A program made the translations under genes and the position numbers. 33,900 nt of DNA, taken from Rickettsiales bacterium. Lineage in GTDB: Bacteria; Pseudomonadota; Alphaproteobacteria; Rickettsiales; UBA3002. How positions within the stretch are numbered: the first letter of the stretch is position 1; every line of letters begins with the position of its first letter. The stretch is from positions 1 to 33,900 of the forward strand of contig CANEUT010000002.1 in the NCBI GenBank assembly GCA_947441895.1, given 5' to 3'. Below are positions 14,089-29,261 of this stretch, one piece after another. The notes under the pieces are model-generated. The model ran no database searches, had not been told where the DNA came from, and saw nothing but the letters and a program-made list of their open reading frames with translations.

Positions 14089-14154
14089 ATGGATTAGCTT
14101 TTTCTCTTGCGCTCTCTGTGCAAAAAATTGATAAAATATACAGGGGGGTGTGAT

Positions 14155-15204
14155 ATGCTAGAAGCCGAGTTGCCACAGAATGAGAATGAACGCCTTGATC
14201 TTTTGTATGGCTTAAATATTCTTGATACCCCAGTCGAGGAACGATTTGATCGTATTACTCGCCTCGTATGTAATATTTTAGATGTTCCTATTGCTGCCAT
14301 TTCATTGGTTGACGAACATCGGCAATGGTTCAAGTCCATACAGGGTTTAAAAGCTACTGAAACTGAGCGCCGCGTTGCATTTTGCGCTCATGCTATCCTC
14401 GATGAAGGATTAATGCTTGTTTCTGATGCTACAAAAGATGTGCGATTTTTAGATAATCCGCTGGTAACGGGTGACCCCAATATTCGTTTTTATGCAGGTC
14501 AGCCACTTTCTTTAGTGCCGAATATGCGTTTGGGAACCCTATGCGCTATTGATTCAAAAACGCGTGAGTTGACAAAACGTGAAGCGGACATCATGCGCGA
14601 TTTAGGACGCATGGTTGAGTCTGAGCTGCAGCTGTTATTTTTAGCCAGTTCTCAAAGAAAGCGCATCGTTTCATTTGAAAACGTAGAGCTTGATATGATG
14701 GTTGATCCCGTGACCCGTCTATGGAGCCGGAAGGGAACTTTAGAAATGCTTGAGCGTGAGTGGGATTGGGCTTGCGATGGAGGAGAGGACATCGCCTTTG
14801 CATGTGTAGGTTTATACCAGCTCACCAATGATATGAAACCAGAAGAGAGCTATCGGTTTGATGAAGCGATTACCGTGGCTTCACAAACCATTTCACGTGC
14901 ATTGGGTGTAAATGACTTAATTGGTCGTTGGAGTGATAACCAATTCATCCTCGTATTTCATGGCTATGGCGCGACTGGACTGAATCATATGATGCAGTCG
15001 ATTCAAAAAGAGCTCGAATGCCCATTTTTCCTGGAAGATGGCACTTCTGTATCATTAAAAATACGTGCTGGTGCTTTTGGTATGACTGCAAATAAAGAAG
15101 ATCGGGTTGAACGGTTAACATTGATGATGAATCAGGAGTATGAAAAAACAAGTCTTGAAATGTTACCAATTAGCGTAAATCACGCCAGTATAGTTTGGCG
15201 CTGA
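14155..15204 (+). CDS. GAF-domain protein with degenerate (probably inactive) GGDEF domain
   Basis: The N-terminal ENERLDLLYGLNILDTPVEERFDRITRL...HRQWFKS...FCAHAI is typical of a GAF sensor. The C-terminal domain has the GGDEF fold context (DPVTRLWSRKG...) but the signature reads RWSDNQF instead of GGDEF/GGEEF. ATG 14155 is preferred (CAGGGGGG 6 nt upstream) over the TTG at 14107. Confidence 0.75.
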   Translation: MLEAELPQNENERLDLLYGLNILDTPVEERFDRITRLVCNILDVPIAAISLVDEHRQWFKSIQGLKATETERRVAFCAHAILDEGLMLVSDATKDVRFLDNPLVTGDPNIRFYAGQPLSLVPNMRLGTLCAIDSKTRELTKREADIMRDLGRMVESELQLLFLASSQRKRIVSFENVELDMMVDPVTRLWSRKGTLEMLEREWDWACDGGEDIAFACVGLYQLTNDMKPEESYRFDEAITVASQTISRALGVNDLIGRWSDNQFILVFHGYGATGLNHMMQSIQKELECPFFLEDGTSVSLKIRAGAFGMTANKEDRVERLTLMMNQEYEKTSLEMLPISVNHASIVWR

Positions 15205-16062: not shown

Positions 16063-17478
16063 ATGTCATTTAAATCGTCGCTGAAAATGTTGCTGACCGT
16101 TGCTGTGGTGTCGCTGGGCAGTGGCGGCGCGATGGCGAATACGGCGGGTGTCTTTCCCCAGAATGACGTGCTGAACTATCTGGAGCACGTGGTGCAGTGG
16201 CAGCGTGAAGCGTCCGTCATTGAGCCGGCCAACCATGCCCCGCGTGAGCTCATGTTTCAAGATACGGTGCGCCAGAATGCGCTGCGCGGTTTACGCGCCG
16301 GATTTAAATTTGCGCGGGCGCAAGCGTCCATCGCTCCGGCCGAGATGCTGACTGAGAACGGCGAGGCGAACCCCGCCCAACGCATGGTGCAACATGGCCG
16401 CGAGAACGATAAAAACATTGCGCAATTGCAAGCGCAGTTACGTGGTAAAATTTCAGCCGCCCAGCGTCAGCAATTGGAAGACAAACTGAAGCTTGCCCTA
16501 GCCCAACAAGATTTATTGGAAACGGTGCAGGCCAATTTTAATGCGGCGGCCAGTGGCGGTGGCGCAAGCTTTTCTGCCAAAATTGGCAATTTGCAACGCG
16601 GCATTCCGGCCATGCTCAGCGATGCCGACCCCGCCGAAGCGCAAGACCATAGCGCGGCTGCGCCGTTGGTTGCACTATCAAACAGCCTGTTCGGATTATC
16701 GGCCCAGCTGTTTGAACTCGCCCGCAAGCAGCGCGAGCTGCAAGCCTTTATGGCCAACACCGACGCGGTGGAGACGGTGGGGCGTGACATGCTGGCCAGC
16801 CTGCGCACCACACTGGATGATATCACGACATCGCAAACGGCCACCGCCGATGCGCGTGTGGCGGATTTTAAACAAGTCTCCACCGTGGTTGCACCACTGG
16901 CGGAAGCGAATGTGTGGATTAGCACCAGCAAAACCGCGCTGAAAGACTGGAATGAAACACTGGGCAACCAATTTACAAGCGTGCTGAAACAGTTTGCTGT
17001 GGCGCTTGGGTTGCTGCTGGCCATGCTGGCGGTGCCGCTGGTGCTGAGCGAAGTAGCCGCCCGTATGATTGCGCGTTATGTAAGCGACTCCAAACGGCAA
17101 CGGCAAGCGAACATGGCACGTCGCATAATGGTGGGGGTGGCGGTGGTGTTTGTGTTGCTGTTGCATTTCATCAGTGACTTTAGTTCCGTGGTGACCTTTG
17201 CCGGATTTATTACGGCAGGTTTAGCGGTGGCGTTGCAAGGCGTGTTGTTATCGTTGGTGGCGCATTTTCTGTTCTATGGTCGCTATGGTGTGCGCGCCGG
17301 TGACCGGGTGAATGTGGCTGGTGTTACCGGCGATATTGTACAGATTGGCATGGTGCGGTTTTATCTGCGCGAGCTGCACAGTAATGCTGAAGGCGTGCTT
17401 GAGCCAACGGGCAAGGTGGTGGCCTTCCCCAACTCCATTTTATTTCAGCCATCGGCCTTTTATAAATATGTTGGCTAG
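16063..17478 (+). CDS. mechanosensitive ion channel (MscS) family protein with signal peptide and coiled-coil periplasmic region
   Basis: 471 aa. The order is a signal-like N-terminus, a Gln/Ala-rich helical region, several TM segments, and then the MscS beta-domain signature GDRVNVAGVTGDIVQIGMVRFYLREL...VVAFPNS. Confidence 0.7.
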   Translation: MSFKSSLKMLLTVAVVSLGSGGAMANTAGVFPQNDVLNYLEHVVQWQREASVIEPANHAPRELMFQDTVRQNALRGLRAGFKFARAQASIAPAEMLTENGEANPAQRMVQHGRENDKNIAQLQAQLRGKISAAQRQQLEDKLKLALAQQDLLETVQANFNAAASGGGASFSAKIGNLQRGIPAMLSDADPAEAQDHSAAAPLVALSNSLFGLSAQLFELARKQRELQAFMANTDAVETVGRDMLASLRTTLDDITTSQTATADARVADFKQVSTVVAPLAEANVWISTSKTALKDWNETLGNQFTSVLKQFAVALGLLLAMLAVPLVLSEVAARMIARYVSDSKRQRQANMARRIMVGVAVVFVLLLHFISDFSSVVTFAGFITAGLAVALQGVLLSLVAHFLFYGRYGVRAGDRVNVAGVTGDIVQIGMVRFYLRELHSNAEGVLEPTGKVVAFPNSILFQPSAFYKYVG

Positions 17479-18317
17479 GGTTTTTGAATGATCACATCGC
17501 TGGGCAAAAACTCATCGACCGCAAGGGCGGGCAGGGCGCTCACTTCCTCATAATAAGGGGTGAAGTCGGGCCGGGTGCTTTCCAGTAATTGCTCGAAACT
17601 ATCGATGACAAAATAATGATGCTGATATTGGTCAATGCGATATTTCTGGCGCATGATGCGCTTCACATCATAGCCCACATGAATGGCTTCCGGGCTGAGC
17701 GAAAAAACCGATTCGCCGGGTGATGACGCAATGCCCGCGCCATAAATGCGGCGGCCCTCGGGTGTGTTAATCAGCCCAAATTCAATGGTGAACCAATAGA
17801 GCGCTTCTAAATGGCCCACATGGCCAAGCTGCTGGGCTTTCAGCCCGCCCGCGCCAAAAGCCTGACTATAATCAGCAAATAGCGGGTTCGCGAGCATGCT
17901 GACATGGCCGAACATCTCGTGAAAAATATCGGGTTCCTCCAGATAATCCACCTCATGCGGCTGGCGAATGAAGGCGGTGACAGGGAATTTACGCGCGGCG
18001 AGCAAGGCGAAAAAGGCTTCCACGGGAACAAGGCCCGGCACACAAACCAACTGCCAGCCTGTTGTTTTCATTAGTTTCTCGCTCACGCGATCAAAGTTTG
18101 GAATGCCGTCGGAGTTATCAAAATCGAGCAGCTTGATGCCTTCCAGATATTCTTTGCAGGCGCGGTTGGCCAGAATGGGCATGTTGCGCGCATAGAGATG
18201 GTGCCACATCGCGTGATCGGCTGCGGTGAATTGTTCCCACTTAAAATCAATCGTCATATCATCATGCACGTGGCTGTAATCGCCGCGCAGCTGGCCATGA
18301 TCTTCTTTTAGTGACAT
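17475..18317 (-). CDS. phhA: phenylalanine 4-hydroxylase
   Basis: 280 aa. It carries the aromatic amino acid hydroxylase core: PDIFHEMFGHVSML (2-His iron ligands), YWFTIEFGL and IYGAGIASSPGE. Confidence 0.9.
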   Translation of the reverse strand: MSLKEDHGQLRGDYSHVHDDMTIDFKWEQFTAADHAMWHHLYARNMPILANRACKEYLEGIKLLDFDNSDGIPNFDRVSEKLMKTTGWQLVCVPGLVPVEAFFALLAARKFPVTAFIRQPHEVDYLEEPDIFHEMFGHVSMLANPLFADYSQAFGAGGLKAQQLGHVGHLEALYWFTIEFGLINTPEGRRIYGAGIASSPGESVFSLSPEAIHVGYDVKRIMRQKYRIDQYQHHYFVIDSFEQLLESTRPDFTPYYEEVSALPALAVDEFLPSDVIIQKP

Positions 18318-18430
18318 ATGCTCTCCATCATTTCAGGTGAGTCTAGCCCTTTCGCAGTTGCGTGGCTAGGCCTTGCCAGTGCGTTGCACCATGGCTATGG
18401 TGGCGTCCTGTCCTTTAAAAGGAGTATCAT

Positions 18431-19537
18431 ATGCAAGCCGCAACCACTGCACTCATTGAACCCACCATCAACCCCATGGGCACCGATGGATTTGAATTCG
18501 TTGAATATGCCGCGACCGACCCCTCGGAGCTGGAAGCGCTGTTCACCAAGCTTGGCTTCAGCAAAATTGCCAAACATCGTTCGAAGAATGTGTATCTCTG
18601 GCGTCAGGGCGATATTAATTTCATTTTGAATGGTCAGCCCGGCAGTCAGGCGGAGGACTTCTTCAACGCGCATGGCCCATCGGCCAATGCCATGGCCTTC
18701 CGCGTGAAAGATGCGGCGAAAGCCATCGCCCGCGCGCGCGAACTGGGCGCAAAAGTCATTGAAAGCAAAGTGGGCCCCATGGAGCTGAACGTGCCCGCCA
18801 TTGAAGGTATTGGTGGCAGTTTGCTTTACCTTGTTGATCGCTATGGCGAGCAGTCGATTTATGACATCGATTTCGTGCCGCTGCCGGGCGTTGACCAGCA
18901 CCCCAAAGGCAATGGCCTGACGTATATTGATCACCTGACGCATAATGTCAGCCGTGGTAATATGGATAAATGGGCCCAGTTTTATGAGCATTTGTTTAAC
19001 TTCCGTGAGATTCGTTATTTCGATATCGAAGGTCACCTGACCGGCCTTAAAAGCAAAGCCATGACCAGCCCCTGCGGCAAAATTCGTATTCCCATCAACG
19101 AATCATCGGATGATAAATCGCAGATTGAAGAATTTCTGCGCCAATATAAGGGCGAGGGCATTCAGCACATTGCGCTGGGCACCGATGATATTTATGCGAC
19201 GGTTGAAAGCCTGAAGCAAAAGCAGATCATCTTCATGGATGCACCACCCGAAACCTATTATGATGGGCTGGCCAAGCGCCTGCCATGGCACTGCGAAGAC
19301 GTGGCGCGCCTCAAGCGCAACGGCATTTTAATGGATGGTGCGCCAGGCACCACTGAAGGCGCAGAGGATGGTGGCATTCTGCTGCAAATTTTCACCAGCA
19401 CCGTTATCGGCCCCATATTTTATGAGGTGATTCAGCGCAAAGGTGATGAAGGGTTTGGTGAAGGTAATTTCCGCGCGCTGTTTGTGTCGATTGAAGAAGA
19501 CCAAATTAAACGCGGCGTGTTGCAACCGAAAGGCTAA
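18431..19537 (+). CDS. hppD: 4-hydroxyphenylpyruvate dioxygenase
   Basis: 368 aa and collinear with Pseudomonas/Legionella-type HppD: [82 protein letters not shown] lies 8 nt upstream of the ATG. Confidence 0.93.
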
Positions 19538-19540
19538 GCG

Positions 19541-20689
19541 ATGAAAAAATATATAAGCTTTCCACGCGTCGCTGGCGTTTCATCACGTCAGGCGCATTGC
19601 GATTTGCCCGAGGGAACGTTCGAGCGTGAATTTGGCCGCGAGGGTTTTTTCGGCCCCACCACGCATTTGCATCATGCTCATAAACCCACCGGATGGATTC
19701 ACTGGGAAGGCGATTTGCTGCCGCGCGCGTTCGACTTGAACAAGCTGCCACAGCCCGTTTCCAGCCCATGGCATGCCACGCCGCTGTTTCACAATTCCAC
19801 CTGCAGCATGCGCTATTGGTGGCTGCGTGGAGCCATGGATCATTTGGTGACCAATGCTGATGGTGATGAGCTGCTGTTCATTCACGAAGGTCGTGGTGAT
19901 TTGTTCTGCGACTTTGGGCATCTGGCGTTTAAAGCGGGCGATTACATCACCATGCCGCGCGGCGCGAAGTGGCGAATCACGGCAGAAAGTGACGCAAAAA
20001 TTCTCCTCATCGAATCGAAATACGATGGTTATCGCCTGCCAGAAAAAGGCTTAGTGGGTGATCATGCGATTTTTGATGCGGCCATGCTCGACGTGCCAGA
20101 ATTGAACGAAGCCTATAAAGACCAGATGGATGAAAAAGAGTGGAAAGTGGTTATGCGCAGCCGCGGCAAATTCACTACCGTCACCTATCCGTTTAACCCG
20201 CTCGATGTGGTGGGCTGGCATGGCGATAATTTGCCGGTGCGCATTAACTGGCGCGATATTCGACCGCTGATGAGCCACCGCTATCACCTTGCACCATCGG
20301 CCCACACCACGTTTGTGGGCAATCGCTTTGTGGTGTGCACCTTTGTGCCACGCCCCGCCGAGATGGATCCGGGTGCGCTAAAAGTTCCGTTCTATCATTC
20401 GAACAATGATTTTGATGAGATTATTTTCTATCACCTCGGTCAGTTTTTCAGCCGCGATAATATTCACCCCGGCATGATTACTTTGCACCCCGCGGGCTTT
20501 GCTCACGGGCCGCATCCCAAAGCGTTCAAGCTGGCTGCCGAGGCCGACAAAAACCGCAAACCCACCGACCCCGCAAAAATACTCGATGAGGTGGCGGTGA
20601 TGATTGATACGCGTGAGGCGGTAGAAATTGCTAGTGAGACCGCTGAATTCGAAGATAAAAACTATGCCATGTCATGGAAGGAATCGTAA
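19541..20689 (+). CDS. hmgA: homogentisate 1,2-dioxygenase (short, about 380-aa type)
   Basis: 382 aa with cupin-type HGO motifs: FYHSNNDFDEIIFYHLGQFFSRD and ITLHPAGFAHGPHPKAF. It sits directly after hppD (3-nt gap) and before the FAH-family and maiA genes. Confidence 0.8.
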   Translation: MKKYISFPRVAGVSSRQAHCDLPEGTFEREFGREGFFGPTTHLHHAHKPTGWIHWEGDLLPRAFDLNKLPQPVSSPWHATPLFHNSTCSMRYWWLRGAMDHLVTNADGDELLFIHEGRGDLFCDFGHLAFKAGDYITMPRGAKWRITAESDAKILLIESKYDGYRLPEKGLVGDHAIFDAAMLDVPELNEAYKDQMDEKEWKVVMRSRGKFTTVTYPFNPLDVVGWHGDNLPVRINWRDIRPLMSHRYHLAPSAHTTFVGNRFVVCTFVPRPAEMDPGALKVPFYHSNNDFDEIIFYHLGQFFSRDNIHPGMITLHPAGFAHGPHPKAFKLAAEADKNRKPTDPAKILDEVAVMIDTREAVEIASETAEFEDKNYAMSWKES

Positions 20690-20690
20690 A

Positions 20691-20760
20691 TGTCATCCTG
20701 AACGAATGTGAAGGATCTCAAGCCGCATGATCAAGATTCTTCGCGTTGCTCAGAATGACA
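20691..20760. repeat. imperfect 25-26-bp inverted repeat (REP/MITE-like hairpin) between hmgA and the FAH gene
   Basis: The left arm is TGTCATCCTGAACGAATGTGAAGGAT (20691-20716). The reverse complement of the right arm (20736-20760) is TGTCATTCTGAGCAACGCGAAGAAT. The TGTCATyCTGArC...GAAGrAT arms resemble a palindromic intergenic repeat family seen in various bacteria. Confidence 0.55.
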
Positions 20761-20782
20761 TAAAACTGCAAAGGAGAAAAAC

Positions 20783-21784
20783 ATGAAACTCGCAACCTTA
20801 AAAAACGGCACGCGCGATGGTGCGCTGTATGTAGTCGATCGTGCGCTGAAGCAGGCAGTCAGCGCTGCTGGTATTGCACCAACCCTGCAAGCCGCGCTCG
20901 ATGATTGGGCGACCATCGCCCCAAAACTGACAAAACTGTACGATGATTTAAACGCGGGCAAAGCAAGTGGCGCTGTAGCGTTTGATAGTCACCAATGTGC
21001 GGCACCGCTGCCACGTGCCTATCAATGGGTTGATGGTTCGGCCTATGTCAACCATGTGGAGCTGGTGCGCAAAGCGCGCGGGGTGGAAATGCCCGCCAGC
21101 TTCTGGACAGATCCGCTGATGTATCAGGGCCTGTCGGATAGTTTCATTGGCCCGCATGATGATATTGAACTGGCCGATGAATCCTGGGGCATTGATTTCG
21201 AGGCCGAAGTTACGGTGGTGACGGATGACGTGCCCATGGCGGTCAATGCTGCTGATGCGCGCTCGCACATTAAACTTCTCATGCTGGTGAATGATGTTTC
21301 GCTGCGTTACATGGCGAAGGATGAGCTGCAAAAAGGCTTCGGTTTTGTGAACTGCAAGCCTACCTGTGCCTTCTCGCCCGTGGCCGTCACGCCGGATGAG
21401 CTGGGCGATTCATGGGATGGTGGTAAAGTGCATTTGCCACTCGTCACCCATCGTGGCGACCAGCTGTTCGGCAAGCCAAACGCAGGGGTTGATATGGTGT
21501 TTGATTTTGGCACCCTCATCGCTCACGCTGCCAAAACCCGCCGCCTCACGGCTGGCAGCATTGTGGGTTCGGGCACGGTGTCGAACAAAGATCGCAGCGT
21601 TGGATCATCCTGCATTGTGGAACAACAGACGCTGGAGAAGTTGGATACGGGTGAGGTAAAAACCCCGTTTCTGAAATTTGGCGAACAAGTGCGCATCGAA
21701 ATGTTCGATGCCACGGGTCAAAGCATTTTTGGTGCCATTCATCAAAAGCTGGTGCGTTATGCATTGGCTGCGAAAGCTGCGTAA
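20783..21784 (+). CDS. fumarylacetoacetate hydrolase family protein (likely the FAH step of the homogentisate pathway)
   Basis: 333 aa. It has an FAH-family C-terminal fold pattern (DFEAEVTVV..., GSGTVSN). The position between hmgA and maiA supports the role. AAGGAGAAAAAC precedes the ATG. Confidence 0.75.
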   Translation: MKLATLKNGTRDGALYVVDRALKQAVSAAGIAPTLQAALDDWATIAPKLTKLYDDLNAGKASGAVAFDSHQCAAPLPRAYQWVDGSAYVNHVELVRKARGVEMPASFWTDPLMYQGLSDSFIGPHDDIELADESWGIDFEAEVTVVTDDVPMAVNAADARSHIKLLMLVNDVSLRYMAKDELQKGFGFVNCKPTCAFSPVAVTPDELGDSWDGGKVHLPLVTHRGDQLFGKPNAGVDMVFDFGTLIAHAAKTRRLTAGSIVGSGTVSNKDRSVGSSCIVEQQTLEKLDTGEVKTPFLKFGEQVRIEMFDATGQSIFGAIHQKLVRYALAAKAA

Positions 21785-22426
21785 ATGAAGCTCTATAGCT
21801 ATTTTCAATCCAGCGCGTCGTATCGCGTGCGTATTGCACTGAACCTGAAGGGGCTTGCGCCGGAAATGCTGCCGGTGAATCTGGTCGCTGCCGCTCAGCG
21901 TGATGCGGCGTATGCCGCCGTAAATCCGCAAATGATGGTGCCGAGTTTAGATGTGGGGGGCAATGTCATCACCCAGTCGCTCGCCATCATGGAATATCTG
22001 GAGGAGGCGCATCCGAGTCCGCCGCTGCTGCCGAAAGACGCCATCACCCGCGCGCATGTGCGGGCATTCGCGCTGGCCATTGCCACCGATATTGCGCCGC
22101 TGGGTAATTTAAAAATCCGTAAATACCTCACCACCGGCTTTGGCATTCCCGAAGATGAGGTGAAGGTGAAATGGTTGCAGCATTGGATTGCCGATGGGCT
22201 GGCCGCGCTTGAGAAGCTGCTCGTTGCCTCGCCACACACCGGCACCTATTGCTTCGGCGATTCACCCACCATGGCTGATTGTTGCCTTATTCCGCAATTA
22301 TTCGTCGCGCGCCGGTTCGAGGTCAATCTTGCTCCATTCCCAACCATTGCCCGCATTGCTGCCACCTGTGAAGCGCACCCCGCATTCATGGCTGCACACC
22401 CCAGCAAACAGGCCGATGCAGCCTAG
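21785..22426 (+). CDS. maiA: maleylacetoacetate isomerase (zeta-class GST)
   Basis: 213 aa. The N-terminal YFQSSASYRVRIALNLKG is zeta-class SSxSxRVRIAL-like. The ATG immediately follows the upstream TAA. Confidence 0.85.
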   Translation: MKLYSYFQSSASYRVRIALNLKGLAPEMLPVNLVAAAQRDAAYAAVNPQMMVPSLDVGGNVITQSLAIMEYLEEAHPSPPLLPKDAITRAHVRAFALAIATDIAPLGNLKIRKYLTTGFGIPEDEVKVKWLQHWIADGLAALEKLLVASPHTGTYCFGDSPTMADCCLIPQLFVARRFEVNLAPFPTIARIAATCEAHPAFMAAHPSKQADAA

Positions 22427-23499
22427 CTTTTCAGCTTGATAAACAGTGCCGATCCAATGACGAATGCTCGTGCCACGTGCGCTTCATTTTTCTTCATCCA
22501 CGCGTCAGCCGCTACTTGTGGCCCATCACCAAACGCCCATTGATAATCATCGATGATTATCCAGCCACCAGGCACTACCAGCGGCATCCAATCGTCAATA
22601 TCGTGCGTGATATGCGCTAAATCATGGTTGCCATCGATATGTAAGCACGCAATATGTCCACCATAAACAGTGGTGCCGAACGCTTCACTGCTTACCGAAA
22701 ACCCAAGCTTATATTGGTGACGCAGCTGATGCGACTGGCCACGTAGGTAATTCACGCGGCCATAATAGGGCATTAAATTTATTTGAAACCCTTGAAACGC
22801 ACTTTCAAAATCAAGTTCGCGGGCTTCGGCATTGACATGTTCACCCACGCCATCTTGATGTGCGGCGGCATTTTGCCATGGGTCAATACAGAGCAGCTGG
22901 CCAATGCCATAATGGTTAGCGAGCGTAGCCAGCACATAGGCCGAACGCCCCCAAAAACTGCCAATTTCAATAATGTCACCTTTAGGGCAACTGCGCGCAG
23001 CTTCCATGAGGGCCATAATTTTTTCATCACTCGACTGGCCGTCAATCCGCAGCGCATGACTTAAAAGTGATGCTTGCTGCAAGCGGTTCAGTGCAGGCGT
23101 TTCATTTTTTATGTCAAGGCTGAAGGGTGTTTTCAGCAACGTGTCAAGCTGTGCAAAAATAGATTGCTGATAGCGAATGGTGGTCGCTGCAAAATGGTCG
23201 GACGTATCAAGCGTCACCGTTAGTTGATGTTTAGTAATAAGCGCTTTTAAGTAACGCGAAATGATGGGGTGACGGGTAAAGATTGAACCGATGTTTTTTT
23301 GTTTTATGAGGGCTAGAAAAGCATCTTCAAACGCAGCATCGGTGACGAACGGTAAAAATTCCCAGTCCTCATAAAGCGCCGCGGCAGGATCATTGATGAT
23401 GGATGATGCGCCAACAGCTTTGGTGTTCGTTGGTTGCAGACGGCGCATATGTTCAAGCGATTCAGGCGCACCACCAGGAAAAAAAAGGGTGGTGGTCAT
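22423..23499 (-). CDS. class I SAM-dependent methyltransferase (Methyltransf_24-like C-terminal domain) with unknown N-terminal domain
   Basis: 358 aa. Motifs are IIEIGSFWGRSAYVLA (motif I-like), LLCIDPW, LHIDGNHD and GGWIIIDDY. The start overlaps the upstream gene stop by 4 nt (ATGA). Confidence 0.7.
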   Translation of the reverse strand: MTTTLFFPGGAPESLEHMRRLQPTNTKAVGASSIINDPAAALYEDWEFLPFVTDAAFEDAFLALIKQKNIGSIFTRHPIISRYLKALITKHQLTVTLDTSDHFAATTIRYQQSIFAQLDTLLKTPFSLDIKNETPALNRLQQASLLSHALRIDGQSSDEKIMALMEAARSCPKGDIIEIGSFWGRSAYVLATLANHYGIGQLLCIDPWQNAAAHQDGVGEHVNAEARELDFESAFQGFQINLMPYYGRVNYLRGQSHQLRHQYKLGFSVSSEAFGTTVYGGHIACLHIDGNHDLAHITHDIDDWMPLVVPGGWIIIDDYQWAFGDGPQVAADAWMKKNEAHVARAFVIGSALFIKLKS

Positions 23500-25406
23500 C
23501 GACGATAGCTCTCTAAATTTTGTCTGATGATGTCTTTTATCAGCTGGCCAGCGCCTGAACCATAGGATTCTGCCTCAAACAGCAGGTGATTTTTGGCGGT
23601 AATTTCGTCGCACAATCGTGCGTGATACGCCTCATCATTGGCCAGTTTCACTGCCGCTATGGCATAATCTTCCAAACTGTCGGCAAGTGGCGCATCGGCT
23701 ATGCCCATGATAGAATAATAGGAAAGCACCACACGCCCACGGGCATAATTCCCCGGCATGGTAACAATGGGCAGGCCAAAGGCAAAGGCATATTGCGCCG
23801 TGGTGCCGCCACCAAAATAAATGGTGTCCAGAATGGCATCTGCCGCGCGCAGAATACTAAATAGCACTTCACGAGGTTGCCAGTTAAGGAACATCACGCG
23901 CGCCGGGTCGCATTGCTTTAGAATACGTTGCTGCAGCAAACTGCTCGATATTTGTTGGGCGAAATCATTAAACAACACAATCGTTGCATTGGCATCACGC
24001 GCAAGAATATCGCCTAACACCGCATCAAAATCGGGGTGAATTTTTTGAATGGCCATAGGGCAAATGTAAAGTTTTTTACCTTCCGGAAGACCAAGCTCGG
24101 CACGGGTTAGCCAGCGCTCAGGAGCATTCGGACGATTGAAAACCGTATCGATGCTTGGGTTGCAAAGCAGGCGTTCGGTGTAGTTTTCATTCGCGTGCGG
24201 CGGTTCATAGCTGCGCGAGGAAATCACATAATCAATCGTGTCGATGCCGGTAGTTTCGGGGTGACCTTGAAAACATGCCTGATGCGGCGCAAGCCGTGCC
24301 ATGGCCATGTAATGGGTGGTCGCATCCATGCCAATGTCAGGATAAATAATAAGGTCGAGCTTCCTATCGGCGACAACTTTATGCGCCGCACTAATGTTTT
24401 TAGGCAGTGAAACAATGGGAATACCTGCGACGATAATTTCCTGGATTTTTTCATCCATCACGTTGGCGAGGTTGAAGAATGTCACTTCAAATTCTGGCAA
24501 TCTGCTGAGATGAATCATGACATTGCGATAGCAGTTGCCAACCGAGTGGTTATGCATGTGTTTGGAGATAAACCCAATGCGAATGGCCGCATTGGGGCTT
24601 GTTATCGCCGCTTTGCAATGGGGCGCCACATAGTTAAGTTCAGGCGCGCAGAGGCGCAGCATGCGGGTGTAGCGCTGTAATAATTCTTTATTGTCGCGGT
24701 TATGAAACGCCAGCGCAAACAGTGGATGATTCGATAGCATGAGAAGATTAATGGACGGCTTTTCTTTGCTGAACCGATCGATGGATGCCGAAAAAGCCGC
24801 CCGCACAGCGTCGATTTCATCCACCGACAAATAAAAGCGCGGCATGTAGGTTTCATAAATCATGCGAAACGATGCGGGCACCCGAAATTTTTTGCAGAGT
24901 GCAGCGTAAGCGGCGTCGGCCTCTTCAAGACGGTTGTCGACTTTAAGTGCAATGGCCTGAAACTGGTGCAGCTCAACATCATTCGGGAAATTTGGAAGAA
25001 TTCTCTCTAAATAATCGGGCACCAAATGGGCCTGCTGAAAGCGCAGGTTTCTACTCACCAAAGTCGCATGAGTTCTCGCTTCATGCGGCGCCACCTGCAC
25101 TGCCAATTCAGCGATTTTTACTGCATCAATAAAATTGTTTTTGCTCTCAAGCAGTGCGCTCAGCATAATGTAACTATCGACGTAATTGGGGTCGGTGCGA
25201 ATGGCGCGCTGATAAAATTCCAAGGCCCCATCATAATGCCCAGCATTATGTAGAATAAATGCGCTTTGATAAATGGCTTCTACATGGTTGGGGTTCATTG
25301 CCAACACCTGCTGATACAAATCAAATGCCTCTTGCCCACGCTGTTTTGCAAACGCGTTTTGCGCCAGCTTTATTAATTTACGGGTCGATGGTGCAGGTTG
25401 GTTCAT
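23496..25406 (-). CDS. TPR-repeat protein fused to a GT41/SPINDLY-like (OGT-family) glycosyltransferase domain; FlmG-like candidate protein glycosyltransferase
   Basis: 636 aa. N-terminal TPR repeats are present (AFDLYQQVLAMNPNHVEAIYQSAFILHNAGHYDGALEFYQRAIRTDPNYVDSY...). The C-terminal part has GHPETTGIDTIDYVISS...NYTERLL...ICPMAIQKIHPDFD, as in COG3914-type transferases. Confidence 0.7.
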   Translation of the reverse strand: MNQPAPSTRKLIKLAQNAFAKQRGQEAFDLYQQVLAMNPNHVEAIYQSAFILHNAGHYDGALEFYQRAIRTDPNYVDSYIMLSALLESKNNFIDAVKIAELAVQVAPHEARTHATLVSRNLRFQQAHLVPDYLERILPNFPNDVELHQFQAIALKVDNRLEEADAAYAALCKKFRVPASFRMIYETYMPRFYLSVDEIDAVRAAFSASIDRFSKEKPSINLLMLSNHPLFALAFHNRDNKELLQRYTRMLRLCAPELNYVAPHCKAAITSPNAAIRIGFISKHMHNHSVGNCYRNVMIHLSRLPEFEVTFFNLANVMDEKIQEIIVAGIPIVSLPKNISAAHKVVADRKLDLIIYPDIGMDATTHYMAMARLAPHQACFQGHPETTGIDTIDYVISSRSYEPPHANENYTERLLCNPSIDTVFNRPNAPERWLTRAELGLPEGKKLYICPMAIQKIHPDFDAVLGDILARDANATIVLFNDFAQQISSSLLQQRILKQCDPARVMFLNWQPREVLFSILRAADAILDTIYFGGGTTAQYAFAFGLPIVTMPGNYARGRVVLSYYSIMGIADAPLADSLEDYAIAAVKLANDEAYHARLCDEITAKNHLLFEAESYGSGAGQLIKDIIRQNLESYRR

Positions 25407-26554
25407 GATGTGTGGTGCGACAGAATTTCATTAAGCGTTGTGGCCACATACGCCAAATGCGATGGCGGAATATCGATATAAAACGGCAGTGACACGACGG
25501 AAGCCCCAAGCTTTTCGGTGATCGATAAATCACCATGCGGATATTTGGCATAAGCGGGTTGCACATGGCAGCCTTTATCCCACCATTGACGGGCTTTAAT
25601 GCCGCGCACCTGCAATTGCGAAATCACCAAATCAGCCGCAAGGCTGGGCAGGCGAATGTTGCAGGTGGTGCTCACCGCATCTTCTGGGAACCAGAGCAAC
25701 AGATGGTGCTTTTCAGCCACTGGCGCAAGGGCTGCATTGCATTGATCGGTCACATTCACCCATTGCTGGCGACGTGCCTCCCATTGGTCGAGCGCGGCGA
25801 GCGCCACCGCCGCCGTATATTCGCTCATTTTCGAATTCACGCCGGGAATAGAAATGCGGCGGGTGTAATAACCAAAATTGGTTTGTTCCTGCACATGGCG
25901 CAGCAGCGATGTATCACGCGAGACAATGGCGGCACCTTCACCCGCGCCCAGCACTTTGGTGGCATGCAAGCTAAACACCACCGTGGTTTTGCCAAAGCTG
26001 CTGTTACGGAAGCTATCAAAGCCCGACGCGGCATCCACCACCACGGGAATGGATGTTTCGGCGGTAAATCTATCCCACGCCGCCACATCAACCGGTTTGC
26101 CGAAGGGCGCCACCACAAGCACGGCACCAATGACCCCGTTCACCTCGGTAATGCGTTTTTTCACCTCGTCCGGCGAAAGCATCCATGTGTCTTCATTCAC
26201 ATCGATGAAATAGGGCGTCATTTCTGCGGCAATGGCAGAAGCGGGGGATGCGACAAATGTCCATGAAGGCACCAGACAAAAACTATCTTTCGGCAGATTG
26301 AGCGCACGCAACACGCTGGTGAGGCCAGCCGTGGCGCTTGATGCGGTGACCACATGTTCTGCCGTGAGGCCAAAATGAGCGCCCAGGCGCTTGCGCAATT
26401 CTTGTTCCAGCGGACCAAAATTGCTGTACCAGCGCGCCGCGTCGATGCGTTTCAAATAGGGCATAATGTCGGCCGCACTTGGCAGCAGCGGCCGCATTAA
26501 ATCGACCGTTTCAAAAACCTGCTCTTGGGGCTGCGCCATCGCCTGTGCTCGCAT
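25403..26554 (-). CDS. DegT/DnrJ/EryC1/StrS-family PLP-dependent sugar aminotransferase
   Basis: 383 aa. The context of the PLP-binding lysine is VVFSLHATKVLGAGEGAAIV, and the upstream pattern is VVDAASGF. There is a 4-nt overlap with the downstream gene. Confidence 0.85.
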   Translation of the reverse strand: MRAQAMAQPQEQVFETVDLMRPLLPSAADIMPYLKRIDAARWYSNFGPLEQELRKRLGAHFGLTAEHVVTASSATAGLTSVLRALNLPKDSFCLVPSWTFVASPASAIAAEMTPYFIDVNEDTWMLSPDEVKKRITEVNGVIGAVLVVAPFGKPVDVAAWDRFTAETSIPVVVDAASGFDSFRNSSFGKTTVVFSLHATKVLGAGEGAAIVSRDTSLLRHVQEQTNFGYYTRRISIPGVNSKMSEYTAAVALAALDQWEARRQQWVNVTDQCNAALAPVAEKHHLLLWFPEDAVSTTCNIRLPSLAADLVISQLQVRGIKARQWWDKGCHVQPAYAKYPHGDLSITEKLGASVVSLPFYIDIPPSHLAYVATTLNEILSHHTS

Positions 26555-26639: not shown

Positions 26640-27461
26640 CTATTTCCAATAATCCACAAATGCTTCGGCAAAAATATACTGGAACATGGGGTCGCGGTTT
26701 TTGGCATTGGCCGCATCGATGATGGGTTTGATAACCGATGCGGGCTGCTTAAACCAAATCCACAAGCGCGACGCCACGTTATAGATGGCGCACTGATACC
26801 CATGACGTTCAAACAGAATTTGCATGGATTTGTTGGTGTAGAATGAGCAATGCACCGACAGCAAATAAAACCAATCGGGGTTTTGCGGCACATGTTCCGC
26901 CACCAGCGTGTGCAGCACCATCACGCCATCATCGCTGACGAGATGAAAAATATCATCAAGCTGCGATGAAAAGCGCAAATGCTCAAGCACTGCCGTGTGA
27001 ATCACCGTGCTGAAGGCTTTGGGCTTCAGGTCTTCGGCGCGCAAGTAACCTTGCGCGGGGTTGCTGCTATGTTCGTATTTCTCAACCGCCATGCCATGGT
27101 CTTTTTCCAAAGCGGCGACTAATTTTCCATCACCCGCGCCATAATCCAACCAGCGGCCGTTGGGCAAAAGCCCGTGCGCCGCCACATCGCCCAAAATGGC
27201 TGATTGTGCTTCAAAACGCTCGAGCCAGCGCGGGTCTTCCGGGTTTACATCGGTGCCCTGATAGAGCGATACCCATTGATTGTTCAGCTTTTCCCACTGC
27301 TCGTTGGTCATTTCATAATGGGTGCGCGAAAAAACAAAACCGCATTGCGTACATTGATCATAGTCAATGTCACCGAGTGCAAATTGTTCAAAATGCTTAC
27401 GCATAAAAGGCGCCGATGCGCCACCGCAGACGATACATGGAATTGACAAGAGAGGCTCCAT
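26640..27461 (-). CDS. class I SAM-dependent methyltransferase with N-terminal Cys4 zinc-ribbon
   Basis: 273 aa. It has CIVCGG...CTQCGF, then motif I WLDYGAGDGKL and a downstream VIHTAVLEHL. Confidence 0.75.
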   Translation of the reverse strand: MEPLLSIPCIVCGGASAPFMRKHFEQFALGDIDYDQCTQCGFVFSRTHYEMTNEQWEKLNNQWVSLYQGTDVNPEDPRWLERFEAQSAILGDVAAHGLLPNGRWLDYGAGDGKLVAALEKDHGMAVEKYEHSSNPAQGYLRAEDLKPKAFSTVIHTAVLEHLRFSSQLDDIFHLVSDDGVMVLHTLVAEHVPQNPDWFYLLSVHCSFYTNKSMQILFERHGYQCAIYNVASRLWIWFKQPASVIKPIIDAANAKNRDPMFQYIFAEAFVDYWK

Positions 27462-27521
27462 TTTCTAGTGTTCCAAACGATGCGACGCTAACATGGCTTC
27501 CACAGAAAGGCTAGCGCTTCA

Positions 27522-29261
27522 ATGCAGTTCACCCAGCTCGATAAAATGGAAACCGTTGTGGTTGAAACACAACGCAATACGTTGCTGCTTGCTGATTACG
27601 CGCCCGGCGTTCACTGCACGCCACAAGCATTTTTTAAAAAAGAAGCCGACGGTTCGGTACCGTGGGTGGTAACCCGCGTGTGCGACCATGCCGGTGGGGT
27701 GCTGCAACCCTCGCAGCATGATGCGACAAAAGCCTATTGCCCGCTGCATAATTGGGAATTTGATTTTGATAGTTTGAGTTATTCCAAAATTCCCAATCAG
27801 CCATTCGAACATCTGGTGAAAAAACCGCTGCCATTTTCGGTGGAAAATGGCGTGTTGAGTTATGAAACTGATCGCTGCATTTTGCGGGTGCCCGCATCGC
27901 TCGCGCCTGACACTTCCAAACGCACCTATGCCACGTTGCGCCACCTTACCCATGCGTCGGTGATGCTGGAGGTGGATGGCATTAAAATGCTGACTGACCC
28001 ATGGTTCGTGGGCGAATGTTTGGCTGGTGGCTGGTGGTTGAAACACCCACCCAAAGCCGATGTGTGGAAACTGCTGGATGAAGTGGATTTTCTCTATATT
28101 TCGCACAACCACCCCGACCATTTGCACCCCGAAACTTTAGCGCGTGCCCGCCGCGACATTCCCATCATTGTTCCAAAATTCCCCACCCATTCGGTGGCCA
28201 CGCCCTTGCGTGCCATGGGCTTCACCAACGTGCATGAGCTAAAACTCAAACGCCTCTATCGCGTGAATGATACCGACTTGCTCATCAGCATTTTGCCCAC
28301 GGGCGACCACCGCGATGATAGCGGTTTGTTTGTCACCAAAGGTGATTTCTCCACCGTGATGACCGTGGATTGCGTGGGCACCAATCAATATGTGCTGCCT
28401 GAAAATATCACCATGCTACTCACCAATTTTTCCTCCGGCGCATCGGGCTGGCCACTATGCTATGAGGTGGTGGGGTCACTGGATGATCGCGCGAAAGTCG
28501 TTACCAAAAACCGCGGCACGGCCATGGTAGAGGTCATGAAATACATCGCCGCCACCAAGCCCAAGGCCTATATGCCCTATGCTGGTTTCTTTGAGGAACT
28601 GGCCCTGCGTGATGCCGAAATTCGGCAATATAACGTGAAGAATCCGCCCAACGTTGTGGTTGATAAGGTGAGAGCAAAATACCCAGACATCGTGGCGGTT
28701 AACCCTTGCGAACATGACGTGATGACGTGGGAAAATGGGGCCATTTCCACTTCGAATGTCAATCAACCGCCGCTATTTACCTATGATGCGGCAACCATCG
28801 CTCACTATCTGTCCGCGCAGCGTGATTTGCTGAAGTATTTTGATTTAGAAAAAGTCGCGGAATATTTCAGCCAGTCTGAATTCAAAGACGTGCTGATTGT
28901 CTATCTGGTTTTAACCGATGACCATTACGAACCCCAGGGAAAAAGCCTGAGGCTGGATTTTTCAACCCAGCCCATTTCGCACACCGTGGTTGATAGTGCC
29001 GCTTTGCTCGCTGAATTCAACGAAGTTGAACATTTAGATGGCAAGCGCCATCTGCTCATCAAAGCACGCACCGATAGCCTGTGGCAAATTGTTTATTTTG
29101 GCCGCCCGCTGGAAGAGCTCACGCTGGGCTTTCAGTGCCGCATTAACCGCAAGCCCGACCAATATAACGCCAGCTTCTGGAAGCACTACACTACCTATGG
29201 CGCGCCCATGCTGCGCACCGGCGAAGATCATTTGCTGTATAAACTCATGGAAGGCGCTTAG
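27522..29261 (+). CDS. CMP-N-acetylneuraminic acid hydroxylase (CMAH)-like protein: Rieske [2Fe-2S] domain + MBL-like fold
   Basis: 579 aa. The Rieske motif is CDH-x16-CPLH (C54, H56, C73, H76; nt 27681-27749). Long collinear matches to animal CMAH as I recall it are LTHASVMLEVDGIKMLTDPWFVGECLAGGWWLKHPP, FLYISHNHPDHLHPETL, NFSSGASGWPLCY, YMPYAGFFEE...YNVKNPP and LGFQCRINRKPDQYNASFWKHY. Confidence 0.8.
   Translation: MQFTQLDKMETVVVETQRNTLLLADYAPGVHCTPQAFFKKEADGSVPWVVTRVCDHAGGVLQPSQHDATKAYCPLHNWEFDFDSLSYSKIPNQPFEHLVKKPLPFSVENGVLSYETDRCILRVPASLAPDTSKRTYATLRHLTHASVMLEVDGIKMLTDPWFVGECLAGGWWLKHPPKADVWKLLDEVDFLYISHNHPDHLHPETLARARRDIPIIVPKFPTHSVATPLRAMGFTNVHELKLKRLYRVNDTDLLISILPTGDHRDDSGLFVTKGDFSTVMTVDCVGTNQYVLPENITMLLTNFSSGASGWPLCYEVVGSLDDRAKVVTKNRGTAMVEVMKYIAATKPKAYMPYAGFFEELALRDAEIRQYNVKNPPNVVVDKVRAKYPDIVAVNPCEHDVMTWENGAISTSNVNQPPLFTYDAATIAHYLSAQRDLLKYFDLEKVAEYFSQSEFKDVLIVYLVLTDDHYEPQGKSLRLDFSTQPISHTVVDSAALLAEFNEVEHLDGKRHLLIKARTDSLWQIVYFGRPLEELTLGFQCRINRKPDQYNASFWKHYTTYGAPMLRTGEDHLLYKLMEGA

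Follow-up and report, generated by a model that had tools for sequence, protein, structure and literature searches.

A predicted full-length bacterial CMAH-type hydroxylase encoded beside a methyltransferase and an OGT-type glycosyltransferase

By analyzing a 33.9-kb stretch of alphaproteobacterial DNA (hereafter the window), we found a gene whose sequence marks it as encoding a genuine, intact and full-length bacterial enzyme of the CMAH type. It is a further member of the bacterial CMAH-like genes already catalogued, and its clade is the odd one out in that family, with a methyltransferase and an OGT-type transferase linked to it. By homology to CMAH and NamH, we infer that the enzyme probably hydroxylates the N-acetyl group of a nucleotide sugar, giving an N-glycolyl group. 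The substrate of the clade could well be an NDP-linked N-acetylated amino-(6-deoxy)hexose, such as dTDP-4-acetamido-4,6-dideoxyhexose, although we hold this assignment tentatively; a 6-deoxy-amino-hexose is slightly more likely than a CMP-activated nonulosonic acid (NulO).

Results

Architecture and conserved residues of the hydroxylase

The gene is an intact, ATG-started open reading frame (ORF) with the same start as in its relatives. Its features are the following.

27522..29261, plus strand: CMAH-type hydroxylase gene, 579 aa, with an N-terminal Rieske domain, a central MBL-fold metal domain and a CMAH-specific C-terminal domain (ORF, BLASTP, alignment, AF2)
27681..27749, plus strand: Rieske [2Fe-2S] ligand segment with C54, H56, C73 and H76 (26-sequence alignment, Pfam PF00355)
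27936..28373, plus strand: MBL-fold catalytic domain with H144, H195-x-H197-x-D199-H200, D266 and D283 (Pfam, invariant residues, CmlA/FrsH matches)
28719..29195, plus strand: CMAH-specific C-terminal domain with R516, G536-F537-Q538, R543, P545 and F552-W553 (animal CMAH alignment)

The Rieske domain (PF00355 at aa 47-93, 21.6 bits, cutoff 20.3) carries the motif C54-x-H56-x16-C73-x-x-H76, and its four ligands are invariant in an alignment of 26 bacterial and animal sequences. Pfam matched both Lactamase_B_3 and Lactamase_B_2 in the protein, the sequence ISHNHPDH occupies residues 193-200, and the MBL ligands H195, H197, D199, H200, D266 and D283 are invariant in the same alignment. Also, 48 near-invariant positions of the family are kept, the C-terminal block GFQ..R.P...FW is invariant in bacterial and animal members, and the AF2 model of the protein reached a pLDDT of 89.9. 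The sequence-only reading had described a 579-aa ORF with a Rieske CxH-x16-CxxH motif followed by an MBL-like ISHNHPDH region, which is exactly what is present. The CMAH blocks that it had listed (LTHA, DPW..G....GWWL.H.P, YISH.H.DH, GASG.P, Y.P.AG.F.E and GFQ.R..R.PD.Y...FW.H) proved invariant or nearly so among the 26 sequences, and their presence, as judged from the alignment, goes far beyond chance.

In BLASTP, the protein shared 27% identity over ~528 aa with source-named animal CMAH (E ~1e-48), aligning as one collinear segment (aa 53-556) with E-values of 9e-49 for the Sarcophilus protein P0137 and 2e-47 for the Lepisosteus protein P0197. Because the alignment to authentic CMAH runs collinear through the C-terminal domain, a generic Rieske + MBL fusion could be ruled out, and the earlier proposal of a full-length CMAH homologue was borne out.

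Two relatives of the enzyme are characterised, CMAH and NamH, and in both the N-acetyl group of a nucleotide sugar is the site of hydroxylation. NamH (Rv3818) of Mycobacteriales is the UDP-N-acetylmuramic acid hydroxylase, which converts UDP-MurNAc to UDP-MurNGlyc. In a reference protein of the NamH family (L089:5076-6626), an MBL domain is followed by SCP2_Rv3818 and then by a C-terminal Rieske domain; only the MBL domains align with the window protein (26% over 225 aa, E = 6e-15), and Pfam did not find SCP2_Rv3818 (PF25451) in the latter. Since the domain order differs, the window protein being Rieske-first, and PF25451 is absent, we rejected the possibility of a NamH orthologue; NamH is a distant relative with another domain order. 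The earlier claim that all bacterial homologues lack a defined substrate holds for proteins of CMAH architecture, a 2019 review having noted CMAH-like sequences in bacteria with activity confirmed for none (PMC6724515), but it overlooks NamH.

Sequence and fold searches identified the MBL-fold diiron hydroxylases FrsH and CmlA as the nearest solved folds to the catalytic domain of the AF2 model. The MBL-only matches L075-L086, including the weak actinobacterial L084 and L085, have no Rieske motif and were not counted as family members. By analogy with the characterised relatives, electrons would enter the N-terminal Rieske [2Fe-2S] cluster and then pass to the MBL-fold, probably di-iron, centre (H195, H197, D199, H200, D266 and D283). 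This centre would activate O2, and the methyl of the N-acetyl substituent on a nucleotide-activated amino sugar would be hydroxylated to give N-glycolyl.

Nonulosonic-acid genes around the family and the clade

The occurrence of CMAH-like sequences in diverse prokaryotes has already been published. Within this family, the window's clade consists of six distinct loci from alphaproteobacterial MAGs (58-100% identity), to which a metagenome scan for more members added a single new locus, partial in length. The clade is nested, with 95% bootstrap, in a group whose other members sit, for the most part, inside Leg- or Neu-type operons. Sugar genes were not found near the close outgroups L003, L004 and L011, and L004 adjoins a ring-hydroxylating dioxygenase fragment.

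We took NulO genes in the flanking sequence as a proxy for a CMP-NulO substrate. The comparison covered 60 full-length loci from outside the window's clade: 27 have one or more NeuA/NeuB/NeuC-type genes within 10 kb and 19 have all three, while 33 have no NulO genes nearby. In L010, the order LegB-LegC-GNAT-NeuC-NeuB-NTPtransferase-NeuA is followed, after 15 bp, by the CMAH-like gene at the end. With a bona fide LegC (508 bits, cutoff 420) and a NeuB/LegI-type synthase (465 bits, cutoff 400), this is a complete legionaminic-acid-type operon closed by a CMAH-like gene. A 115-aa ORF located 3' of the L010 hydroxylase is of low complexity and probably not a gene. Together, these neighbourhoods lend strong support, at the level of the family, to bacterial members acting on CMP-activated NulOs.

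For the window gene, the hydroxylation of a CMP-NulO had been proposed from the sequence alone. This proposal is sustained for the family (27 of 60 loci) but not for the gene itself, as the flanks available for the six clade loci contain no NeuA/B/C-type gene; in the window, these flanks cover 27.5 kb upstream of the hydroxylase gene and 4.6 kb downstream of it. It is possible, if short of likely, that the clade hydroxylates the N-acetyl group of a CMP-activated NulO of the legionaminic, pseudaminic or neuraminic type made elsewhere in the genome, that this sugar is perhaps methylated, and that a FlmG-like GT41 enzyme transfers it to flagellin or another protein. The NulO linkage of the family, the L010 operon and the grouping of the clade with NulO-linked members all favour such a substrate, and Pse and Leg genes are scattered in alphaproteobacteria. 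Retention of the conserved positions and of the C-terminal domain also favours it. A search for a signature of substrate shift did not set the clade apart: family-conserved positions are replaced at 5/80 in the window's clade versus 16/84 in animal CMAH, the former figure not exceeding those of NeuABC-linked clades and being lower than in animals. Since the C-terminal domain is whole and only these five positions are replaced, there is no sign in the sequence of a change of substrate class.

A methyltransferase-hydroxylase module within a variable cassette

Upstream of the hydroxylase gene lie a short intergenic region and four genes.

27462..27521, no strand: divergent intergenic region of 60 bp between methyltransferase and hydroxylase (sequence)
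26640..27461, minus strand: Methyltransf_23, a zinc-ribbon (CxxC...CxxC) class I SAM methyltransferase (Pfam)
25403..26554, minus strand: DegT-family sugar aminotransferase, best match DesI-type (Pfam, NCBIfam)
23496..25406, minus strand: TPR + GT41 (OGT/SPINDLY/XcOGT-type) protein glycosyltransferase (Pfam PF13844, PDB matches)
22423..23499, minus strand: Methyltransf_24 methyltransferase (Pfam)

The arrangement is the one claimed earlier, with a DegT aminotransferase, two methyltransferases and a TPR/GT41 transferase all on the minus strand and divergent from the hydroxylase. First, the Methyltransf_23 partner is present at all six clade loci (59-98% identity), each time in the divergent layout, with a gap of 61-235 bp. 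Its family is small, with only 66 members in 5.8 billion proteins, and its distant relatives sit in amino-sugar clusters with DegT and acetyltransferase genes, free of NeuA, NeuB or a CMAH-like gene. Second, the other genes are less constant: GT41 occurs at 4/6 clade loci, including a rearranged layout in L005, DegT at 3/6 and Methyltransf_24 at 2/6. Third, L001 and L007 carry the methyltransferase-hydroxylase pair alone, so the substrate of the clade can be made elsewhere. The hydroxylase and the zinc-ribbon methyltransferase would form a fixed two-gene module, in which the methyltransferase most likely modifies the same sugar, possibly at the new hydroxyl. Here, a five-gene accessory cassette would combine this module with the sugar aminotransferase, a TylF-like O-methyltransferase and the TPR-GT41 transferase, the last of which may put the finished sugar on a protein. 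A common origin of the adjacent methyltransferase types MT23, MT11 and MT11b was considered and rejected, as they share generic class I similarity only (hhalign probability <=73%).

The Methyltransf_24 protein shows weak similarity to TylF and rhamnosyl-O-methyltransferase. The cassette DegT scored 157-170 bits with DesI, the dTDP-4-keto-6-deoxyglucose aminotransferase, versus ~106-110 with PseC and ~98-105 with LegC, and its L002 orthologue showed the same ranking. However, the label "DesI-like" is weak, because the DegT scores are far below all curated cutoffs. L002 also contains a true RmlA (402 bits, cutoff 361) 8 kb from the cassette, in a separate and oppositely oriented gene group.

The cassette has a deviant GC content, and its place in the core genome changes from one genome to the next. 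The GC of the GT41/Methyltransf_24 block is lower (0.48-0.49) and differs from that of the methyltransferase-hydroxylase pair. Scans for promoters and terminators around the cassette, including the 60-bp intergenic region, gave signals not above shuffled expectation. Neither a conserved reductase nor a cytochrome b5 gene was found linked to the hydroxylase in the loci of the clade or the family. An FAD-dependent gene starts downstream of the hydroxylase (ATG at 29269, 7 nt past the stop codon). It was excluded as a dedicated reductase because it is a singleton among all loci, its GC differs, and in L098, an 84%-identical relative, homology stops exactly at the hydroxylase stop codon.

Such a small island, with its deviant GC and variable location and with no dedicated reductase conserved next to the hydroxylase, is what might be left around a CMAH-like gene that was acquired horizontally and is now decaying or non-catalytic, devoid of function. 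The intact ORF with the start of its relatives, the four Rieske and all MBL metal ligands that are invariant, and the conservation of the clade (58-86% identity) across six or more genomes along with an equally conserved partner gene make such a remnant very improbable. We also consider it improbable, though less so, that the substrate is other than a nucleotide sugar, be it a small metabolite with an N-acetyl group, a glycan that is lipid-linked or has already been transferred, or a C-H bond outside an acetyl group, with the GT41 and DegT genes nearby as a mere product of island packing. The solitary pairs of L001 and L007, the outgroups devoid of sugar genes (with the dioxygenase fragment in L004) and the distinct GC of the GT41/Methyltransf_24 block are consistent with this possibility, as is the chemical versatility of a fold that in CmlA and FrsH hydroxylates carrier-tethered amino acids. 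Against it, both characterised members of the superfamily use nucleotide sugars, GT41 recurs at four of the six clade loci even when rearranged, sugar clusters harbour relatives of the partner methyltransferase, and linkage across the family is overwhelmingly to sugar-nucleotide genes.

The neighbouring glycosyltransferase and the flagellin hypothesis

The 636-aa transferase combines TPRs (aa ~10-170) with a GT41 domain (aa 434-615; PF13844, 68.8 bits, cutoff 25), and its PDB matches were OGT (5e-39) and XcOGT (6e-14), as well as SPINDLY and HMW1C. QKIHP of the neighbour aligns with YKIDP of OGT and GTTA with HTTG, so that the equivalent of Lys K842 and the TT turn are kept; in OGT, we take these residues to bind the nucleotide diphosphate (donor phosphate) moiety. 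To our knowledge, all known GT41 donors are NDP-sugars.

The transferase had been called FlmG-like. FlmG has an N-terminal TPR and C-terminal GT-B layout (PMC7591256), it is reported as restricted to Caulobacterales, and a +16 Da "oxidized" form of Pse has been described on Caulobacter flagellin. Both the layout and the oxidized Pse are in line with hydroxylation of a CMP-NulO. Yet the resemblance of the neighbour to FlmG is only architectural: there are no flagellin or Pse/Leg genes in the 33.9-kb window or at the clade loci, nor any flagellar genes in the window. The plasmid-borne GT41 homologues examined, from Azospirillum, Rhizobium, Cereibacter and Ralstonia, adjoin no flagellin or Pse/Leg genes and lie in polysaccharide contexts too heterogeneous to bear on the FlmG comparison. 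From the earlier description, the TPR + GT-B layout holds; the flagellin destination is not supported for this gene, as no flagellin gene is nearby. The cassette does not read as a NulO context for this gene either, given a DegT far from PseC and LegC, a GT41 that keeps its diphosphate-binding residues, and an RmlA near the cassette of a relative. These points, the NulO-free clusters of the partner methyltransferase relatives and the confinement of FlmG to Caulobacterales stand against a CMP-NulO substrate for the clade.

Discussion

For a hexose-type substrate, we count the DegT with its best score to DesI, the RmlA of L002, the diphosphate residues of the GT41 and the resemblance of Methyltransf_24 to deoxyhexose O-methyltransferases, as well as the absence of NulO genes from 6/6 clade loci and the NulO-free clusters holding relatives of the partner methyltransferase. 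Against a hexose substrate, we count the nesting of the clade among members of Leg/Neu operons with its C-terminal domain kept, the location of the L002 RmlA in a separate, opposite gene group, the scattering of NulO genes in alphaproteobacteria, and the 33 of 60 non-clade homologues that also have no NulO genes nearby. A fuller scenario is that the clade moved from CMP-NulOs to an NDP-N-acetyl-amino-deoxyhexose and that, with the methyltransferase, it makes a sugar bearing an N-glycolyl or N-(methoxyacetyl) group (+16 Da, then +14 Da) that GT41 attaches to a protein; taken as a whole, we deem it unlikely.

N-glycolyl sugars are rare, and they matter to immunology: in humans, Neu5Gc is a xeno-antigen, and NOD2 has a potent ligand in N-glycolyl-MDP. 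Should the clade act on another nucleotide sugar, the range of chemistry known for the family would widen, and the enzyme would provide a bacterial, soluble and cytochrome-b5-independent N-acetyl hydroxylase for glyco-engineering. An NDP-amino-deoxyhexose, specifically, would add a third class of substrate to the CMAH/NamH superfamily, and we know of no description of N-glycolyl or N-(methoxyacetyl) decoration in bacterial protein glycans. If the clade still uses CMP-NulOs, the enzyme is simply one more member of a family catalogued before. Our analysis also makes the de novo synthesis of N-glycolyl NulOs by bacteria directly testable, the best operons for doing so being the Leg-type operon of L010 and a conserved gammaproteobacterial NeuABC locus.

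Comparison with known systems

Animal CMAH (EC 1.14.18.2) is built of the same three parts, in the same order, and has the same length (~580 aa), and the Rieske ligands, the HxHxDH and Asp ligands and the GFQ..R.P...FW block are invariant in both. In contrast, the window protein comes from a bacterium, and a bacterial lineage other than its own clade lies nearest to the animal enzymes; its gene has no CMP-sialic acid synthetase or NulO synthase linked in its flanks and no cytochrome b5 system, and it is paired with a methyltransferase. NamH likewise has both a Rieske and an MBL-fold domain and forms N-glycolyl on a nucleotide sugar, but has SCP2_Rv3818 where the window protein has the CMAH C-terminal domain. 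CmlA and FrsH share the HxHxDH + carboxylate metal site and O2-dependent C-H hydroxylation, whereas they have no Rieske domain and act on NRPS carrier-bound amino acids; the MBL core alone is in common (TM ~0.31-0.35 over ~315 columns).

As for the transferase, its likeness to FlmG, the Pse/Leg transferase of Caulobacter/Brevundimonas flagellin, is one of description (TPR + GT-B layout, 636 versus 596 aa), and it differs in having no flagellin or NulO genes nearby. With the OGT-type GT41 enzymes, it shares clear homology to OGT, SPINDLY and XcOGT and the signature Lys and TT residues. Finally, the hydroxylase belongs with the uncharacterised bacterial CMAH-like proteins (Simakov 2015, Peri 2017; JGI "CMP-N-acetylneuraminate monooxygenase"), from which its subclade is set apart by a context of Methyltransf_23, GT41 and DesI-like DegT instead of NeuA/B/C linkage.

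An intact CMAH-type protein in a small bacterial family

The gene under study is an uninterrupted open reading frame resembling that of CMP-Neu5Ac hydroxylase (CMAH):

27522-29261, + strand: CMAH-like hydroxylase ORF, intact, 579 aa

It carries a Rieske motif (C54-x-H56-x16-C73-x-x-H76) and the sequence ISHNHPDH (aa 193-200), and Pfam recognized a Rieske domain, barely over cutoff, together with two MBL-fold models. By using a mouse-type CMAH sequence (96% identical to a rodent entry) solely as bait, we retrieved 120 source-named animal CMAH proteins. BLASTP aligned the hydroxylase with those of Sarcophilus (P0137) and Lepisosteus (P0197) in a single collinear stretch each, covering aa 53-556 at 27% identity (E = 9e-49 and E = 2e-47, respectively). 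Also, 47 columns were invariant in an alignment of 26 bacterial and animal CMAH-type sequences, including the metal sites (the four Rieske ligands, H144, S-H195-x-H197-x-D199-H200, D266 and D283) as well as DPW, GWW, GxxGxP, P..A....E....D, KN, R516, GFQ, R543, P545 and FW. Together, these data show that the ORF, the Rieske and MBL motifs and every CMAH block listed in the sequence-only reading are real. An alignment-based AlphaFold2 model of the protein was confident (mean pLDDT 89.9, pTM 0.87). The PDB holds no CMAH structure; the closest sequence and fold matches among solved structures were CmlA and FrsH, two MBL-fold diiron β-hydroxylases. We give very little credence to the reading that the gene is non-functional.

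A large-database search returned 225 relatives, many named "CMP-N-acetylneuraminate monooxygenase" by JGI. Since an exhaustive HMMER search over 1.84 billion 50%-identity representatives yielded 129 clusters at E ≤ 1e-30, with the window's clade collapsed into one representative at this clustering level, the family is small and sporadic. Peri et al. 2017 described CMAH homologues in two green algae and 60 prokaryotes, and a 2019 review (PMC6724515) considered the activities of bacterial CMAH-like sequences unconfirmed and de novo bacterial Neu5Gc not known. The earlier statement that a defined substrate is lacking for every bacterial homologue thus holds for proteins of CMAH architecture, but overlooks NamH, a distant homologue. 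The window gene is an added member of a family already catalogued and biochemically untested, and makes the question of a bacterial N-glycolyl sugar experimentally tractable.

Neighbour-joining on 71 sequences and 528 columns, with 100 bootstraps, placed the window's gene in a clade (100% bootstrap) with five other loci (L001, L002, L005, L007 and L009), all from alphaproteobacterial MAGs, some labelled "Rickettsiales". This clade joins L003, L004, L010 and L011 (69%), then a gammaproteobacterial clade (95%). Animal CMAHs (P0123, P0137, P0175, P0197 and P0225) fall elsewhere, with Bdellovibrio, an Enterobacterales MAG, Nitrospira and Polyangia (bootstrap 87-100), apart from the proteobacterial/Bacteroidota majority; green-algal sequences lie outside this sample, so the tree does not address an algal origin.

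CMAH-like genes are linked to nonulosonic acid genes across the family

To describe genomic context, we kept 80 loci from named genomes and contigs for selected matches, called and clustered all ORFs, and identified recurrent neighbour clusters with Pfam. Leaving the window's clade aside, 60 loci were full-length, and the genes found most often beside the CMAH-like gene in these were three, a NeuC-type UDP-GlcNAc 2-epimerase, a CTP_transf_3 (NeuA-type) cytidylyltransferase and a NeuB-family synthase, with at least one of these NeuA/B/C-type genes within 10 kb in 27 loci, at least two in 22 and all three in 19. The clearest candidate seen here for a bacterial CMP-nonulosonate N-acetyl hydroxylase lies in a complete legionaminic-acid-type operon, at locus L010:

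OZ243109.1, 2600-13283, co-directional: Parvibaculaceae MAG operon for LegB-like, LegC, GNAT, NeuC, NeuB/LegI-type, CBS-NTP-transferase, NeuA and CMAH-like proteins

LegC scored 508 bits (cutoff 420) and the NeuB/LegI-type protein 465 (cutoff 400). The CMAH-like gene, 15 bp past NeuA, closes this operon and is followed by a Pyr_redox_2 flavoprotein gene.

A fixed NeuB/NeuC/NeuA locus including the CMAH-like gene is common to 10-11 gammaproteobacterial MAGs (L013-L020, L030, L035 and L036), in the order alpha-oxoamine-synthase-like aminotransferase, NeuB, NeuC, PLD-like protein, methyltransferase, NeuA, a 455-aa protein without known family, CMAH-like protein and an 863-aa protein from a cluster outside the family scan. 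With neither a DegT nor a dehydratase cluster detected near these loci, a neuraminic-type (Neu5Gc-like) product is conceivable. Given the NeuA/B/C linkage, the L010 operon and this gamma locus, hydroxylation of a CMP-activated nonulosonic acid (NulO) is well supported at the family level.

CMAH-like genes also occur in gastric non-pylori Helicobacter (H. cynogastricus, H. baculiformis, H. cetorum and H. bizzozeronii; L049, L051, L069 and L073). The three full-length loci have no NeuA/B/C-type gene within 10 kb; L073 is an 825-bp contig only.

The hydroxylase of the window's clade belongs to a small mobile cassette

In the window, the hydroxylase lies beside four genes:

22423-23499, - strand: Methyltransf_24 methyltransferase (MT24)
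23496-25406, - strand: TPR-GT41 glycosyltransferase
25403-26554, - strand: DegT aminotransferase
26640-27461, - strand: Methyltransf_23 methyltransferase (MT23)

A divergent MT23 gene was found 61-235 bp from the hydroxylase in all six clade loci. MT23 combines a CxxC…CxxC zinc ribbon with a DYGAGDG motif; its family counts only 66 proteins, and it is conserved as well as the hydroxylase (59-98% identity). TPR-GT41 is present in 4/6 loci, DegT in 3/6 (L005 has a hexapeptide acetyltransferase in its place) and MT24 in 2/6. The module is a small mobile accessory cassette: its core-genome site differs per genome (tyrosine catabolism in the window, the suc operon in the 84%-identical relative L098, alanine racemase in L007), homology between the window and L098 stops precisely at the hydroxylase stop codon, and the GC content of the GT41/MT24 block is below that of its flanks. 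The downstream FAD-dependent gene (PF21688, 29262-30891) was rejected as part of the cassette: no relative has it conserved alongside the hydroxylase, and its GC content is different and higher (0.57-0.59). Its likeliest start (ATG 29269) lies only 7 nt past the hydroxylase stop, so read-through transcription is possible.

Class I SAM methyltransferases of a different family in each case adjoin the hydroxylase in three separate clades: besides MT23, 12/60 loci outside the window's clade carry a Methyltransf_11 gene no more than 600 bp off, and the gamma clade has another methyltransferase at a distance of 2.1 kb. This pairing suggests sequential tailoring of the N-acetyl group, which would become N-glycolyl and then O-methylated by the hydroxylase and the methyltransferase in turn, with predicted shifts of +16 then +14 Da.

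Which sugar may be modified in the window's clade

The CMP-NulO substrate proposed from sequence, well supported by linkage in the family, found no such support in the clade itself: none of its six distinct loci has a NulO gene within available flanks, which for the window reach 27.5 kb upstream. The context of this subclade thus departs from the family's typical NulO linkage. Even so, we rate a CMP-NulO as only somewhat less likely than the hexose reading below: 33 of the 60 other loci likewise have no NeuA/B/C-type gene nearby, NulO genes are scattered in alphaproteobacteria, and the clade is bracketed in the tree by NulO-linked members. Moreover, the CMAH-specific C-terminal domain is wholly kept, and just 5/80 family-conserved positions are replaced (N89K, P165E, F469Y, F556Y and N558T), compared with 3/80 in the NeuABC-linked gamma clade and 16/84 in animal CMAH.

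Our leading, still tentative, reading is that the substrate is an NDP-amino-deoxyhexose. The cassette DegT scores best against DesI-type dTDP-4-keto-6-deoxyglucose aminotransferases (157-170 bits, versus about 106-110 for PseC and 98-105 for LegC), unlike the L010 DegT, an unambiguous LegC, and a true RmlA lies 8 kb away in L002. The GT41 is a genuine homologue of OGT, SPINDLY and XcOGT, keeping a Lys aligned with OGT K842 and a Thr-Thr turn, which we take to bind the donor diphosphate; to our knowledge, all known GT41 donors are NDP-sugars. A weak resemblance of MT24 to TylF and rhamnosyl O-methyltransferases points the same way. Second-tier MT23 relatives (40-48% identity) lie in DegT-plus-acetyltransferase amino-sugar/O-antigen clusters, from which NeuA, NeuB and CMAH-like genes are absent. 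We also count in favour of an NDP-hexose the viosamine-type glycosylation of P. syringae flagellin and B. cenocepacia FlmQ, a predicted flagellin glycosyltransferase. Part of the gene's value lies in the chance, well under even, that the clade uses a new substrate class. A substrate other than a nucleotide sugar is improbable.

The transferase had been called FlmG-like. FlmG, a 596-aa flagellin Pse/Leg transferase (PMC7591256), shares the TPR plus GT-B layout; however, it is reported as confined to Caulobacterales, and no flagellin gene was found in the window or beside the plasmid-borne GT41 homologues examined. The likeness is therefore an architectural analogy only. In Caulobacter crescentus, the accessible part of a preprint (bioRxiv 10.1101/2023.12.03.569772) describes flagellin pseudaminic acid forms of 359 Da and 375 Da, the latter 'oxidized' (+16 Da) with no enzyme assigned; no Caulobacter locus is among the 80 CMAH-like genome matches kept.

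Other genes in the window

2185-3714, - strand: 509-aa ORF, no family match
4016-11518, + strand: 2500-aa ORF, recognisable only around aa 171-337, where it resembles a DEDDh/RNase_T exonuclease
11525-13750, directly after the latter: 741-aa DHH/DHHA1 phosphoesterase ORF

The last two form a giant nuclease-like gene pair, with the 509-aa ORF ahead of it. A GAF-GGDEF diguanylate-cyclase-type gene (14107-15204) precedes a 471-aa ORF (16063-17478) without Pfam or PADLOC match. A tyrosine/phenylalanine catabolism set (17475-22426) comprises an aromatic amino acid hydroxylase, HPPD, a homogentisate-dioxygenase-like protein, an FAA-hydrolase-family protein and MaiA. Its dioxygenase and hydrolase steps fall to atypical family members: the former is divergent (100 bits, where TIGR01015 has its cutoff at 511) and the latter non-canonical.

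Proposed chemistry and comparison with NamH

The CmlA/FrsH fold matches and the invariant His/Asp set suggest a scheme where electrons would flow from the Rieske cluster to a metal centre in the MBL fold, probably di-iron, which would activate O2 and hydroxylate a C-H bond. Judging from the homologues CMAH and NamH, this bond would belong to the methyl group of a nucleotide sugar's N-acetyl substituent. In general terms, the protein is quite probably an N-acetyl hydroxylase of a nucleotide-activated amino sugar.

Mycobacterial NamH converts UDP-MurNAc to UDP-MurNGlyc; it combines Rieske and UlaG/MBL domains, and published descriptions treat it as distantly homologous to CMAH. We compared the hydroxylase with a NamH-family protein from plasmid pPE-7 of Nocardia sp. 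PE-7 (L089:5076-6626; gene 5076-6629), identified by the Rv3818-specific SCP2-like Pfam domain (E = 4e-48) and ordered MBL, SCP2, C-terminal Rieske. This plasmid-borne gene has a gene for UDP-N-acetylmuramate dehydrogenase (MurB) some 4 kb away. The match between the two proteins was confined to their MBL domains (26% over 225 aa, E = 6e-15), so a NamH architecture was ruled out. The window hydroxylase is of CMAH architecture, and the CMAH-specific C-terminal domain, replaced in NamH, is whole in it.
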